Shown here piece by piece: positions 12,267 to 63,998 of a stretch of DNA of 64,000 nucleotides; within the stretch, counting starts at the first letter, position 1; each line of letters starts with the position of its first letter. Under the pieces are notes generated by a model. It did not search any database and was not told the DNA's origin. It saw only the letters and a list, made by a program, of their open reading frames with translations. The position numbers and the translations under genes are program-made. The stretch is from the NCBI GenBank assembly GCA_036338695.1, contig JAYZBQ010000015.1, forward strand, positions 90,892 to 154,891, written 5' to 3'. The DNA comes from Myxococcota bacterium (GTDB taxonomy: Bacteria > Myxococcota > UBA4151).

Positions 12267-12884
12267 ATGATGAGATGGCTTGTGATCGTAGCCGCGAGCG
12301 CGCTGAGCGCGTGCGGTGCCCCGCCTGCGACCGGAACCGATGGCGGCGACCGCCCGATCGCCGAGGATGCGGGCGGGCCGTTGAGCGATGCTGGCTCCGA
12401 CGGTTCGGACGCCGGAGCGGAGGTGCCCGATACGGGCGGTCTGGCCGACAGCGGGAGCGGCTCGGTCGACGTAGGGGGTGCTCCGGGTGACGCAGGGACC
12501 GTTACGGTCGATGCCAGCGTGGACGCAGGCGCTGGAGCGGGTCTGCAGCCGACGATCTGCTCGATCTGGGAGAGCCAGATCTTCTCGGGCTGCGCCAACG
12601 GTTATTGTCACGGTGGAGGCGCTGGCGGCTTTCGTATGGACCACAGCAGCGCACAGGCTCTGCATGATTCGATCGTGAACGTCGAGAGCCAAGCTCGTAT
12701 GTATTACGTCGTGCCCGAGAACGACCGCATGAGCTACCTGATCAACAAGCTCGATGGCACGCAGGGTCAGCTGGTCTCTGGCGCTGGTGAGCGCATGCCT
12801 CCGGGCGGTGGCTACCTGAGCTTTGACCAGCTGGAGGTGTTGAGGCGCTGGATCAACGACGGCGCATCGGCCGACTGTCCCTAA
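12267..12884 (+). CDS. Lipoprotein with DAG-repeat linker and a cytochrome c-like domain (CX4CH)
   Basis: Lipobox LSAC. CANGYCH at 12591-12611 and a C-terminal RMPP...L...RWINDGA, similar to planctomycete-type cytochrome c domains. Confidence 0.7.
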   Translation: MMRWLVIVAASALSACGAPPATGTDGGDRPIAEDAGGPLSDAGSDGSDAGAEVPDTGGLADSGSGSVDVGGAPGDAGTVTVDASVDAGAGAGLQPTICSIWESQIFSGCANGYCHGGGAGGFRMDHSSAQALHDSIVNVESQARMYYVVPENDRMSYLINKLDGTQGQLVSGAGERMPPGGGYLSFDQLEVLRRWINDGASADCP

Positions 12885-59761: not shown

Positions 59762-60576
59762 GCCTCGGGATCAAAGCGCTCAGTCTGGTTCCCAAAAATA
59801 CCGTCTCTCGACTTGCGGGTGCGTTTAGTCGCTCCGGGGTCTCGCGTGCGGTCATCCCCATGTTCGTTCGTAACTACGGCATCGACATGGACGAAGCGGA
59901 GGTCCCCGCCGAGGGCTTTGCGACGCTGCATGAGCTGTTCACTCGTCCGCTCAAAGCGGGCGCACGGACGATCGCTGACGCCGCGATCGTGAGCCCGGCT
60001 GACGGCAAAGTCGCCCGCTGCGGCGAGGTCACGGCCGGGACGATGGTGCAGGCTAAGGGCAAAGAGTATTCGATGGTGGAGTTGCTTGGCGAGGCCTTCT
60101 CGCCGAGCGAGGATGCGTCCGATTACGCCTACGCGACCATCTACCTCTCGCCGACCGATTACCACCGCGTGCACAGCCCCGCCGAGCTCTGGGTGGAGTC
60201 GGTCTACGCTGTCCCGGGGACGCTCTGGCCGGTCAACCCGATGAGCGTGAATCAGGTGGATCGACTGTTTTGTATCAACGAGCGCGCCACGCTGCGCTGC
60301 AGGACCGCTGAGGGGCATCGGGTCTGGGTTGTTCTCGTGGGTGCCACGATCGTGGGCGGGATCCGGCTCGCCTTCGAGCCATCGTACGGCAGCAACCTGC
60401 CCAGTCGAGGAGCGACGGAGCGCTACGTGTATGAGGAACCTGTAGCGCTGGCTGCGGGCGCACCGCTCGGGCATTTTGAGTTCGGTTCGACCGTCATCAT
60501 GGTGTGGGACCGCGGCCTTGGCGACATCGCCATGGAACAGGGGCGCCCGGTAAAGGTGGGCGAAGCCCTCGTCTAG
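59758..60576 (+). CDS. psd: Phosphatidylserine decarboxylase proenzyme
   Basis: Motifs F.R.LK, SPADG, YLSPTDYHRVH, NER and the FGST cleavage motif. Confidence 0.93.
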   Translation: MSLGIKALSLVPKNTVSRLAGAFSRSGVSRAVIPMFVRNYGIDMDEAEVPAEGFATLHELFTRPLKAGARTIADAAIVSPADGKVARCGEVTAGTMVQAKGKEYSMVELLGEAFSPSEDASDYAYATIYLSPTDYHRVHSPAELWVESVYAVPGTLWPVNPMSVNQVDRLFCINERATLRCRTAEGHRVWVVLVGATIVGGIRLAFEPSYGSNLPSRGATERYVYEEPVALAAGAPLGHFEFGSTVIMVWDRGLGDIAMEQGRPVKVGEALV

Positions 60577-62405
60577 CGCGCCATCCCTCGCCACTTCTGA
60601 GCGGCTGCGTCGAACCGGTAGAGCCGACCCGCCTTGTTGAAGACGAGCAGGTCGACCCCGACGGCGCGCAGCGCCACGGCGTCGCCGTCTCGGTCGATGT
60701 AGCGGCCCAGGTCGCCTGAATAGACGTGGCGCCTGCCGTCGAGGCCGAACCAATGCGGTCCACGCGCCGTCACCTGGAGCACGTGCTGCGCCACCGGTTG
60801 GCCATTGTTAAGCCAGTTATCTTGGTGGAAGATAAAGAGGTCCCGCTCCTTGTCGAGCATGTAGAGGTAGCCTTCGGTCGCCAGCAGGTGCCCGCTCACC
60901 GGCGCCTTCCCGAGCTTGACGGTCTGGTCGTCGCTCATGGCGTAGACGCGGCCGTCCGCTGCCAGCCAGTAGATCACGCCTCGACTGGCTTGGACGTCCA
61001 CGACCTCACCCACGTTGTGCACGGGCTGCGGACCATCGCCCGCCGTCCACTCGTAGAGCTTCCGGTCGCTGCTGACGAAGTACACCTGACCGCTTTGATC
61101 ATCGACTGCATAAGCGGTCGCTTGCACTGCGCGACGGTAGCCGATGGTGTCGCGCACCCACAGGTCACCGTCTGGGTCATGGAGTACCTTAGGCCAGTGC
61201 AGCTCAAGCAGCTTGGGCAGGCGCTCGCGGGTTTTGGCGTCGAGGTTTTCCATGGCAGCGGCGAGGCCTTGGTTAATCCAGGCTCCGGGGACGCGGTGCA
61301 GGAAGCCGGCGCGCCCATGGGTCACCGTGGCGGCGAGGACATCGCAGGCTGCTCGCAGGGCGAGCTCGCGTTTTCCCGTGCGAGACCAGACCGCCACGGC
61401 GCCGACCAGTAGATCGGTCAGGAGCTCAGAGTCTGAGGCGTTCTCGAGGGTGAGCTGTCCATCGACGCTCAGCACCTCGGTGGCGCCGCCGTCGTCACTG
61501 AGGAACCCTCGCACTAAGCTCGCAGGCAGGGCGAAGCCAAGGCCGCCGTAGGCGACGTTGCGTTCGCCCCGCCGCTCGGTGCGGTTGCGCACGAAGGTGT
61601 TGATCCCGACGACCTGCCCTTGCCGGTTGAGGAGAGGCCCCCCTGAGTTGCCCGGATTGATCGGGGCTTGGTGTTGGATCAACCCCTTGCGCATCCCGCT
61701 GACAGCGCCGCTGGTGAGGCTCCATTGCAAGCCGTCTGGATTGCCGAGCGCAATGACCTCTTGCCCAACCCGTAAGCCGCGTTCATCGCCGAGCTCTAGG
61801 TGCGGGTAGGGGGCTTTGTCCGGGGTGAGCTTGAGCAGGCCCAGGTCGAGCTTGCGGTGGACCTTGATAAGCTGCGCAGGCAGCGCGTTGTCTTTGTTTT
61901 CTTTAAGGAACGCTTTAAGGTCGCCCGCCTCAGGGCTCGGCGCGCTGAGCTGACGCAAAAAGACTGAGATCTGACCGCCACGCGCCACATCGCTGACCAC
62001 ATGGCGATTGGTCACGGCGAGGCCCTCTGGATCGACGATCACGCCCGAGCCGATACTCGTCGAGTTGCCCCGGCGCACCACGATAAAGATGGTCGCCGGC
62101 ACGGCGCGTTCAAAGACCTGCTGTCGGCTCAAGCCGGTGTCGGCGCCCGGCTCATGGGTTAGTCCGCGAAAGTCAAAGACCGGCTGTCGCTCGCTTGAGC
62201 GCAGCGTAATGTCGAGTGGCGGATGCGTTCCGCAGCGCGTCGAGACGGTCCCAAGCTCGAGCTGTACGCTCGCTTGCCCGACGCCGCGCAGGTCGCCTGC
62301 GACGAACACCTTGTCGCCATCAGGGCAGCGAATCGTCGCTTGCACCGTGGTCGTTGCGCAGCCGAGGAGCGCCCAACTCAACACGATGAGGTGGCGGGCG
62401 ATCAT
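60573..62405 (-). CDS. Trypsin-like (S1C) serine protease lipoprotein without PDZ, with a C-terminal beta-repeat domain
   Basis: Lipobox LLGC. Triad motifs TNRHV, LDLGLL and INPGNSGGPL. Confidence 0.85.
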   Translation of the reverse strand: MIARHLIVLSWALLGCATTTVQATIRCPDGDKVFVAGDLRGVGQASVQLELGTVSTRCGTHPPLDITLRSSERQPVFDFRGLTHEPGADTGLSRQQVFERAVPATIFIVVRRGNSTSIGSGVIVDPEGLAVTNRHVVSDVARGGQISVFLRQLSAPSPEAGDLKAFLKENKDNALPAQLIKVHRKLDLGLLKLTPDKAPYPHLELGDERGLRVGQEVIALGNPDGLQWSLTSGAVSGMRKGLIQHQAPINPGNSGGPLLNRQGQVVGINTFVRNRTERRGERNVAYGGLGFALPASLVRGFLSDDGGATEVLSVDGQLTLENASDSELLTDLLVGAVAVWSRTGKRELALRAACDVLAATVTHGRAGFLHRVPGAWINQGLAAAMENLDAKTRERLPKLLELHWPKVLHDPDGDLWVRDTIGYRRAVQATAYAVDDQSGQVYFVSSDRKLYEWTAGDGPQPVHNVGEVVDVQASRGVIYWLAADGRVYAMSDDQTVKLGKAPVSGHLLATEGYLYMLDKERDLFIFHQDNWLNNGQPVAQHVLQVTARGPHWFGLDGRRHVYSGDLGRYIDRDGDAVALRAVGVDLLVFNKAGRLYRFDAAAQKWRGMAR

Positions 62406-62415
62406 GGGGCTCCGT

Positions 62416-63831
62416 CTAGGGGTTCAGGCAGGCGTCCAGAGCGTCGCTGTTGTCGATCCACGAGCGGATCATGTCCAGATGCGTTTGCGGGAGCGGATCC
62501 CCGGCAGAAGGCATCTGCACGCCGCTGCCGCCCTGGACGTTGAGGTGCTGACCGCTGAGCTTGAGGTACAGGTAGCTGCTCATGTGATCTCGGTGCTGAA
62601 CCAGCGGCAATCCCGCCAGCGTGTTGACCCCAACCAGGCTGTCATAGAGCGCTTGCGGGCTCGTTACAGTGATCCGCAGCCCGCCTTGATTCTGTGTCTG
62701 ATGACAATTGATGCAGGGAAGAAACACGCCTTCACGCTGGATGTCGCAGATCGTCTGCGCGGGCGCACACAGGACGTGGTTGCGGCAGTCCCTGTCGTCG
62801 CAGTCCACCCGTCCGTCACCGTCGTTGTCATCGCCATCCGAGCACTGCTCTTCAGGGAAGCCCTGCAGGCAGCGCTGGATGTCACCACCGTTGAGCCAGC
62901 GACCGACCTCGGTGATCGCCTGGTTCGATAGGGGCGCCAAGTTCAAGGGCATCCGACCGCCACGCGCCGAGACGCAGTCGGTGTCGCCGTCAGCGCAGGG
63001 CGGATTGAGCTGCGTCTGCGTGCCTGCGATCTTGGCGTAGACCATGCTCTGCTCTGCGTTGCCCGAGACAAAGGAGGCTCGGTTCTGCGACCCAGGCGTG
63101 TTCATCGAGTCGAACAGCTGCTGAGGGCTTGAGTGGTCCACTCGGAAGTTCCCCGACGCTTCGCTGATCCGGTTGCCTTGGTTGTCGAAGCGGTCTTGGT
63201 GGCAGTTCGTGCACTGGGCGAAGTAGCCCGCCTCATGCAAGTCACAGATGGTGACCCGGTCCAGACAGGCTGTTGAGCCCTCGCAGGCGGGGTCGTCACA
63301 GTCCGTCAAGCCGTTTGCGTTGTCGTCCCACTCGTTGTCGCAGATCTCGTCCGCGCAGTAGGGCAGGGGCGCACAGTCCGGGTCGTCGCAGTCGACGAAG
63401 CCGTCTTGATCGTTGTCGATGGTGTCGGTGCAGGGCGTGCCGCCCGCCAGATTTTCTGGAGGGAGCCCCGCGTCGTAAGGACCGCTGTCCACGACGCCAG
63501 CGTCTGCCGGGCCTGTGTCTGCGCGCCCCGCGTCGACCGCAGCATCCGGCGTCACGGCTGCGTCCTCAACCGGAACCGCAGCGTCCTGTGCCTGCCCCGC
63601 ATCGGGCGGCGGAGGCACGTCGTACTCAGGGACGCAGACGTCCTCTTTGTACACACCGCTACCTGCCGGGAGCTCAATGCGTCCCACGCAGACGTAATCC
63701 ACAAACTCGGTCCCGAGCGCCGCCGCCGTGCAGTCCTCATCGGTTTCACACGGTGGGTTACCCGGATAAAACTGCCGAGGGCACGCCAGCAGCGCCGTCG
63801 TGAGCGCAACCATTAGAGCGAGCCGGAACAT
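62416..63831 (-). CDS. Cys-rich lipoprotein with two CxxCH cytochrome c-like domains
   Basis: Signal MFRLALMVALTTALLAC, a DA(G/A) linker and DND.(D/N)G..DCDD..C repeats. CTNCH at 63199-63213 and CINCH at 62701-62715. Confidence 0.78.
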   Translation of the reverse strand: MFRLALMVALTTALLACPRQFYPGNPPCETDEDCTAAALGTEFVDYVCVGRIELPAGSGVYKEDVCVPEYDVPPPPDAGQAQDAAVPVEDAAVTPDAAVDAGRADTGPADAGVVDSGPYDAGLPPENLAGGTPCTDTIDNDQDGFVDCDDPDCAPLPYCADEICDNEWDDNANGLTDCDDPACEGSTACLDRVTICDLHEAGYFAQCTNCHQDRFDNQGNRISEASGNFRVDHSSPQQLFDSMNTPGSQNRASFVSGNAEQSMVYAKIAGTQTQLNPPCADGDTDCVSARGGRMPLNLAPLSNQAITEVGRWLNGGDIQRCLQGFPEEQCSDGDDNDGDGRVDCDDRDCRNHVLCAPAQTICDIQREGVFLPCINCHQTQNQGGLRITVTSPQALYDSLVGVNTLAGLPLVQHRDHMSSYLYLKLSGQHLNVQGGSGVQMPSAGDPLPQTHLDMIRSWIDNSDALDACLNP

Positions 63832-63998
63832 CAGGGGACGAACAAGCCGCTCACGGCAGCGATCGAGCCAATCGCGGTGAGCGCAATCCCTGCGCCGTTG
63901 AGCACGCGCCCCATCGTCGTGGTGCCCTCGAGCTCCTTGAACTGTGCCTTCTGAGCAGCCGTCCACGCAGGCTTGTCCTGGAGCGTCGTGCGGTCATC
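63831..63998 (-). CDS. 3' end of a hypothetical protein with a C-terminal hydrophobic segment (starts beyond the window)
   Basis: Open frame reading DDRTTLQDK...GIALTAIGSIAAVSGLFVP*. Its TGA overlaps the next ATG (TGATG). Confidence 0.6.
   Translation of the reverse strand, partial: DDRTTLQDKPAWTAAQKAQFKELEGTTTMGRVLNGAGIALTAIGSIAAVSGLFVP

Follow-up and report, generated by a model that had tools for sequence, protein, structure and literature searches.

A predicted lipid-anchored diheme protein of Myxococcota with PSCyt1-like, probably disulfide-stapled cytochrome c domains

Introduction

Do two lipoproteins with cytochrome c-like domains and surplus cysteines belong to an undescribed surface or periplasmic redox or sensing system, or to a family already on record? 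The genes in question, P0001 and P0002, lie in a stretch of 64,000 nucleotides from a Myxococcota genome (hereafter, the window). An initial annotation, made from the sequence alone, had described an expanded family of tethered envelope heme modules with a disulfide staple, interleaved with probable calcium-binding repeats, and had raised the possibility of such an undescribed system. The analysis presented here leads us to conclude that the domain is a variant of a huge, barely studied cytochrome family and not a new system. We further propose, with a probability of roughly 0.6, that P0001 is a tethered His/Met one-electron carrier of the cell envelope, composed of stapled domains that resemble one lobe of the cytochrome FoxE.

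Results

Architecture of the two lipoproteins

From its sequence, P0001 is predicted to be held in the cell envelope by a lipid anchor and to contain two cytochrome c domains (Table 1). Going from the N- to the C-terminus, the lipobox (LLAC17) is followed by the four-cysteine module, the DAG linker, two repeats, the first heme domain, the third repeat and the second heme domain. The ATG start was chosen because the orthologues begin there; the longer frame given by the ORF finder, with a GTG at 63966, was rejected for the same reason. The contig, and with it the window, ends 169 bases upstream of the start. In the full-length model, pLDDT is below 50 over residues 74-121 of the linker.

Table 1. 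Features of the two window genes and their products
Feature	Positions	Strand	Basis or remarks
P0002 gene, 205-aa monoheme lipoprotein	12267..12884	plus	lipobox C16, DAG linker, one domain
P0002 cytochrome domain: C98, CANGYCH 109-115 (CX4CH), M177, W195, C204	12546-12881	plus	sequence
P0001 gene, 471-aa diheme lipoprotein	62416..63831	minus	ATG start
P0001 signal peptide and lipobox, Cys17 (predicted lipid anchor)	63781..63831	minus	sequence; C17 invariant in 8/8 rows
P0001 N-terminal four-Cys module C28, C34, C48, C66; predicted beta hairpin	63622..63780	minus	orthologue alignment, model
P0001 acidic low-complexity DAG linker, residues 71-128, 12 D/E vs 1 K/R	63448..63621	minus	predicted disordered
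P0001 two acidic double-disulfide repeats (NF033662), likely Ca-binding spacers	63265..63438	minus	profile match
P0001 cytochrome domain 1, residues 192-324: C196, CTNCH 207-211, C279/C286 within an insertion, M294, W312, C321	62860..63258	minus	domain alignments
P0001 third NF033662 repeat, residues 328-355, between the heme domains	62767..62850	minus	profile match
P0001 cytochrome domain 2, residues 358-471: C362, CINCH 373-377, M440, W458, C468	62419..62760	minus	model pLDDT 94.5; best structural match FoxE

Translation and alignment agree on three cytochrome c-like domains in the window, two in P0001 and one in P0002. Common to all three are C(x2/x4)CH, a distal MP, a Trp and a Cys at each end; the domains are identical at 33/113, 45/110 and 40/111 positions in the pairwise comparisons (29-41%), with BLASTP E-values of 1e-7 to 3e-15 for a nominal database of 1e6 residues. 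The alignment pattern given by the initial annotation holds as far as the shared motif is concerned and fails at its 'R.W', which reads GRW in domain 1. The extra Cys pair that it had noted in each domain is confirmed as C196/C321, C362/C468 and C98/C204, and a lipobox (LSAC16 in P0002) and an acidic DAG linker can be read in both proteins. The proposed lipid tethering is likewise borne out by the two lipoboxes and by the invariance of C17 in the P0001 orthologues. Both lipoproteins have a residue other than Asp at position +2. Lipoproteins of E. coli without Asp at +2 are sorted to the outer membrane, and by analogy this suggests that P0001 and P0002 are sorted there as well.

In the whole-length alignment of P0001 with seven orthologues, all 27 Cys are invariant (8 rows). 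The 22 Cys outside the anchor and the heme motifs all sort into even sets, including two that had been overlooked previously, the four-Cys module and the C279/C286 pair in the insertion of domain 1, each invariant in 8/8 rows. P0002 has only two spare Cys besides the anchor and the heme motif, C98 and C204.

The P0001 frame is under purifying selection: in environmental contigs, third codon positions account for 28 of the 37 substitutions (p 1.7e-7). Metatranscriptome contigs, which can show neither transcription nor its level, cover parts of P0001 in 4/4 runs; five of the six runs found contained less than one tenth of the sampled words. The contigs of one run cover most of the gene at 95-99% identity, and in the same run the Sdh region is covered and the heme domain of P0002 is not. 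A 75% identical orthologue (L004) is present in a record labelled 'uncultured Candidatus Hydrogenedens sp.', a label at odds with the Myxococcota-like features of this genome, such as its TIGR02232 repeats; two stapled relatives bear the name 'Myxococcota bacterium'. A metallophosphoesterase lipoprotein with the same DAG linker is encoded just upstream of P0002 (10949-12139), and one also lies near the P0002 orthologue in L018 and L019.

The DNDxDG units of P0001 belong to NF033662, with 65.2 bits against an NCBIfam cut-off of 41 and three matching stretches. They match the C-rich domain of teneurin-4 (PDB 7PLP; E 2e-4), which is described as binding three Ca ions (PMC9058538). By analogy, the P0001 repeats likely bind Ca as well, in accord with the proposal of calcium-binding repeats. 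In the second repeat, the motif reads DDNANG.

Paralogues and membership in the PSCyt1-like family

An HMM of the three window domains alone retrieved five further proteins in the genome (3.36 Mb, 93.6% complete) at E 1e-32 to 1e-14, the next match having an E-value of only 0.34. Altogether, the genome encodes 10 such domains in 8 proteins, which bears out the expansion proposed by the initial annotation. Nine domains, in 7 proteins, carry the Cys pair; aligned with one another, they show no variation in either extra Cys, in CxxCH, in MP or in W (9/9). The tenth is divergent, with a CX6CH motif and no staple. Each of the five other genomes of the same taxonomic family has 4-8 matches. Across the phylum, 175 of 301 genomes, a tally that includes the unpublished genome G195, show one or more matches at E<=1e-5; the copy numbers are lower bounds because 15 candidates were scored per genome. 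The expansion is not unique to this lineage, given that some larger genomes of the phylum reach up to at least 9 matches. In 30 fetched loci, the pair of N- and C-terminal Cys is present in 13/14 domains from the same family as the window genome and in 9/23 distinct domains from other families (two double-counted domains removed).

Among the paralogues, one stapled domain ends a 1039-aa lipoprotein after 19 TIGR02232 Cys-rich repeats (L001:8440-11556, contig C4), and two tandem genes on contig C57 (L002:8784-9975) each encode a minimal lipoprotein made of a linker and one stapled domain. The secreted proteins of this lineage abound in cysteine repeats, and against that background the staple adds modestly.

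The profile of the nine domains matched 11,559 clusters (defined at 50% identity) at E<=0.001 and 1,067 at 1e-10, in a search of 1.84 billion representatives. The possibility that the domain is unique to this window is ruled out by these clusters together with the genome paralogues and the phylum matches. Among 47 scanned relatives, taken from the best 150 and picked mostly as long multi-domain proteins, 40 passed the PF07635 (PSCyt1) cut-off by whole-protein score. Three paralogues in the genome also pass it (39.9, 26.1 and 23 bits), and two of these carry the same Cys pair. The window domains themselves stay under the PF07635 gathering cut-off, with domain 2 scoring 13 bits vs 22, and a Pfam scan of the window proteins gave sub-cut-off matches only, with PF07635 not listed at E<=1. 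Because the paralogues pass the cut-off but the window domains do not, we describe the latter as PSCyt1-like and not as formal members of PF07635. The PSCyt1-like resemblance stated in the initial annotation is upheld by way of these relatives and paralogues. In the ESM Atlas, the matches are mostly unnamed clusters, along with PSCyt1-bearing clusters at 0.91-0.94. DUF1501 gene clusters of PSCyt proteins have been described (PMC3542564), and a passage of PMC5615132 states that nothing is known about PSCyt function. The suggestion of an undescribed system was not sustained: the domain belongs to the 11,559-cluster family, the structure of FoxE is solved, the repeats are the curated NF033662, and no conserved partner gene was found.

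The domains to which relatives are fused include PSD1-5/PSCyt2-3, propeller and c7, as well as Ig-like, PKD, CHRD, fn3, Lipoprotein_15 and MopE-type repeats. The latter partners, the paralogue whose heme domain follows the TIGR02232 repeats, and the absence of a conserved redox partner gene beside the window genes would all fit a heme domain carried as a module by surface adhesion or scaffold proteins, where it would act as a redox buffer or a stabilising cap and not in a directed electron-transfer chain. However, several paralogues, among them P0002 and both C57 products, consist of nothing but an anchor, a linker and the heme domain, and the invariant Met ligand fits a tuned electron carrier. 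We consider the passenger role unlikely and favor the electron carrier.

Gene neighborhoods

A trypsin-like lipoprotein protease (Trypsin_2, E 7e-30; its C-terminal region has a weak propeller match, E 0.074) is encoded at 60573-62405, 10 bases downstream of P0001. This adjacency is kept in both same-genus loci examined (L012, L013) and was not seen in the sister-genus loci examined. It could mean that P0001 senses redox state or a ligand and thereby controls the protease. The limited conservation of the gene pair argues against this, as do the differing neighbors of the paralogues; furthermore, the Pfam and NCBIfam scans found no signalling domain, and a six-coordinate His/Met heme, if present, would have no open site. 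Altogether, a sensor appears quite improbable to us.

The neighbor genes differ from one paralogue to the next, so that the window genes are not markers of a multi-gene system. Beside either of them, we found no gene for a quinol oxidase, for a porin or for another redox partner. A foxEYZ context was not found either: downstream of P0001 are the trypsin-like lipoprotein and housekeeping genes, and upstream is the contig end. In a CxxCH census, the largest multiheme proteins of the genome have 5 motifs, a maximum that gives no evident sign of a classic extracellular electron conduit. The genome also encodes what we take to be, from ORFs read by eye, an alternative complex III and a caa3-type oxidase.

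Two other loci of the genome bear mention. On contig C7 (L003:5488-9687), MlaE/F/D-type genes are followed by a stapled diheme paralogue, a 291-aa secreted protein and a stapled monoheme lipoprotein; the 291-aa protein is beta-barrel-like by eye, ends in Phe and has no match in Pfam or NCBIfam, and the MlaD-diheme-barrel order is kept in 4/4 relatives examined, from both genera. The diheme protein and the barrel are a possible small porin-cytochrome pair. On contig C22 (L026:48-4156), genes for a YtkA-like lipoprotein, a PSCyt1 CX6CH lipoprotein, a five-heme cytochrome, MbnP and a di-heme peroxidase (CCP_MauG) form a run that looks like a copper-handling locus and holds the tenth, unstapled domain.

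Predicted fold and relation to FoxE

The AlphaFold model of domain 2, built from the 65-row alignment A3, has a pTM of 0.87. When compared with 48,161 chains, it matched FoxE first (Z 7.4, rmsd 3.3, 100 aligned residues; model residues 1-111 vs chain residues 37-259), a score below the level of 8 that the tool associates with a common arrangement. Cytochrome c peroxidase (Z 4.2) and PccH (4RLR; Z 3.8) came next, and non-cytochrome chains did not exceed Z 2.8. The full-length P0001 model, a weak one (pLDDT 61.7, pTM 0.36), again retrieved FoxE, at Z 5.7 and over residues 353-468 only. A Foldseek search of the PDB with domain 2 produced no match at E<=0.001, and FoxE was missing from its list; on re-examination, the 30 chains that it gave yielded class I cytochromes at Z 2.3-2.8.

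At the sequence level, profile A3 matched FoxE among the PDB sequences at E 1.1e-13, hitting both FoxE domains (4e-4 and 5e-6), and profile A5 matched it at 1.1e-9; the structural test and the 1.1e-13 profile test share alignment A3. Independently of these tests, FoxE is also found by a single relative, P0147 (E 5e-5), and, at E 0.012, by the paralogue of P0147 in this genome. The narrow profiles A1 and A2 gave only weak c6/c553 matches and no FoxE, and phmmer with P0001 against the PDB sequences found no FoxE at E<=10. The link between P0001 and FoxE is therefore transitive, and we rejected FoxE orthology for lack of a direct sequence match.

Judging by the aligned range, which spans FoxE residues 37-259, the model of domain 2 would correspond to one swapped FoxE lobe, that is, the N-terminal half of domain 1 combined with the C-terminal half of domain 2. 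The hemes of FoxE are reported to have Met distal ligands that are crossed between the two domains, and its structure 5MAB a C80-C258 disulfide (PMC10654088). The MP of the window-type domains aligns with the ligand Mets of FoxE, and the structural alignment stops at model residue 111, the C-terminal Cys, beside FoxE C258. The lobe match thus supports a His/Met heme and gives a disulfide at the C-terminus a precedent. A c-type heme with likely His/Met ligation, as initially annotated, is backed by the invariant motifs and by the FoxE match in both profile and model, and we hold the FoxE-like fold and the heme assignment to be highly probable.

A likely disulfide staple

We surveyed Cys positions in 150 proteins (146 top matches, the two window proteins and two homologues), yielding 362 scored and 52 unscorable domains; this sample was drawn with a profile of stapled domains, and kin in it are not independent. 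Both the N- and the C-terminal Cys are present in 113 of the scored domains, 17 combine a mid-helix Cys with the C-terminal one, none has all three, 217 have no Cys, and 15 have a lone Cys. Thus, the C-terminal Cys is partnered in 130/137 cases, by one of two mutually exclusive partner types. Of the 29 multi-domain proteins of mixed composition, 14 confine the Cys pair to a single domain with Cys-free domains next to it, the pattern crosses between domains in 2, and the other 13 are ambiguous in part or throughout. A tree-based analysis of Cys co-evolution yielded only three supported independent pairs, mostly in the same direction (p 0.25). Because the C-terminal Cys comes with one of two mutually exclusive partners, usually in the same domain, and because P0002 has no spare Cys beyond this pair, an intradomain disulfide between the two ends appears likely. 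The co-occurrence of Cys in the 362 domains accordingly lends likelihood to the staple envisaged at the outset.

Domains 2 and 3 of P0164, joined by short linkers, have an N-terminal Cys only and a C-terminal Cys only, respectively; by this pattern they are a candidate natural FoxE-like swapped pair. In the 17 domains of the other type (P0191, P0199, P0205, P0274, P0275, P0284 and others), the FoxE-type mid-helix and C-terminal Cys lie in one domain, as would be expected of an unswapped FoxE lobe.

A swap could, in principle, occur in P0001 itself, with its two domains pairing as a FoxE-type diheme unit that oxidises Fe(II) or another metal: FoxE, the closest solved relative, likewise has two domains, and the adjoining N-only and C-only domains of P0164 are what a swap would give. 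Against this possibility, domain 2 is a closed unit in both models, the two Cys of a staple usually sit within one domain, and the linker between the P0001 domains contains a whole disulfide repeat; in addition, P0001 has no direct FoxE match at E<=10, and its neighbors are not FoxY or FoxZ. Only a slim chance remains, in our estimate, for the swapped oxidase.

Predicted heme attachment

Contig C61 of the genome carries a Ccm system I, with CcmC, CcmE and CcmF-type genes over the cut-off (PF01578 twice, PF03100 once). The atypical CX4CH of P0002 and the CX6CH of one paralogue might be taken to mean that the Cys serve as metal ligands or thiol-disulfide redox sites with no heme attached, but a His follows the second Cys, the distal Met is invariant (MP is present in 65/65 rows of A3), the best structural and profile matches are all c-type cytochromes, Ccm genes are present, and 69 of 386 family domains combine CX4CH with the same MP and W, all of which makes the absence of heme very improbable indeed.

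Discussion

Taken together, these results translate into a simple model of P0001 as a tethered electron carrier. Under this model, the protein would be exported and lipidated at Cys17, with the lipobox seen in the sequence and the processing presumed. The Ccm system I, the genes of which are present, would then attach heme at each CxxCH, and P0002, with the CX4CH that is common in the family, is a putative Ccm substrate as well. Each domain is predicted, from the model and the homology with FoxE, to form a closed monomer with the Met of MP as the sixth ligand, and the putative structural disulfides C196-C321, C362-C468 and C98-C204 would pin the tail after the last helix. The acidic linker would provide reach and the Ca/disulfide repeats stiff spacers. 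The hemes could then pass electrons between redox partners of the envelope or surface and the respiratory chain, by analogy with the 'hemes on a string' of PgcA.

We consider the link between PSCyt1 and FoxE a useful result in itself. For the 11,559 clusters of the family, it supplies a structural template, a prediction of the heme ligand and residues that can be tested; it also suggests that FoxE consists of two PSCyt1-like units paired by a domain swap. We did not find this link in the literature searched, which stopped short of the primary FoxE papers and the structure-classification databases, and it may already be known. The stapled domain, with its 115 residues, lends itself readily to expression and electrochemistry. 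On marine Myxococcota c-type cytochrome lipoproteins in extracellular electron transfer, the literature searched, supplements aside, yielded nothing. A bolder picture, to which we give little weight, is that the PSCyt1-like domain is the unswapped building block of FoxE and that the stapled, Ca-stiffened copies in this small-genome marine lineage form a surface redox array that exchanges electrons with metals or prey, possibly via the C7 diheme protein and beta-barrel pair.

Comparison with known systems

FoxE, a diheme cytochrome c and putative Fe(II) oxidase of Rhodobacter ferrooxidans SW2 (PDB 5MAB, 5MVO), shares with the window domains the CxxCH, the MP Met 50-60 residues on, a helix that ends in W and a Cys just after it, at an identity of about 15%. 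However, the partner in the FoxE disulfide is a mid-helix Cys, which the window domains lack, having an N-terminal Cys instead; and the Mets of FoxE are cross-ligated between its domains, whereas the window domains are predicted to be closed, the full-length model being weak. P0001 further differs from FoxE in its lipobox, linker and repeats and in the absence of foxYZ neighbors.

Several other families are more distant. The C-terminal heme domain of the hydrazine synthase alpha subunit (PDB 5C2V, 644-766) matches profile A3 at E 1.8e-7 and has FP where the window domains have MP. PccH is a distant match in structure. The SO2930 family (TIGR03806) scores below its cut-off with the window-type domain, and so do the LIC11213 lipoproteins (NF047812), at 15 bits against a cut-off of 100. 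Relatives of the window domains also cross-match the fatty acid cis-trans isomerase, PccH and the SO2930 family (PF06934, PF22297, TIGR03806). These sequence cross-matches, with that to hydrazine synthase, hint at a wider superfamily of FoxE-like cytochromes. The PF07635 model of PSCyt1 has 59 positions and does not span the extra Cys of the window domains. The NF033662 units of P0001 have four Cys per repeat, compared with six in teneurin.

In overall design, the closest parallel that we draw is with PgcA of Geobacter sulfurreducens, which is described as having a lipobox and, after it, individual monoheme domains along with low-complexity linkers (PMC10570954). P0001 similarly combines a lipobox, monoheme domains and a low-complexity stretch, which in this case lies between the anchor and the domains. 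The linkers of PgcA are Pro-Thr repeats located between the hemes, whereas P0001 has an acidic DAG linker, with an NF033662 repeat between the hemes; and mature PgcA is released, whereas P0001 carries a predicted lipid anchor.
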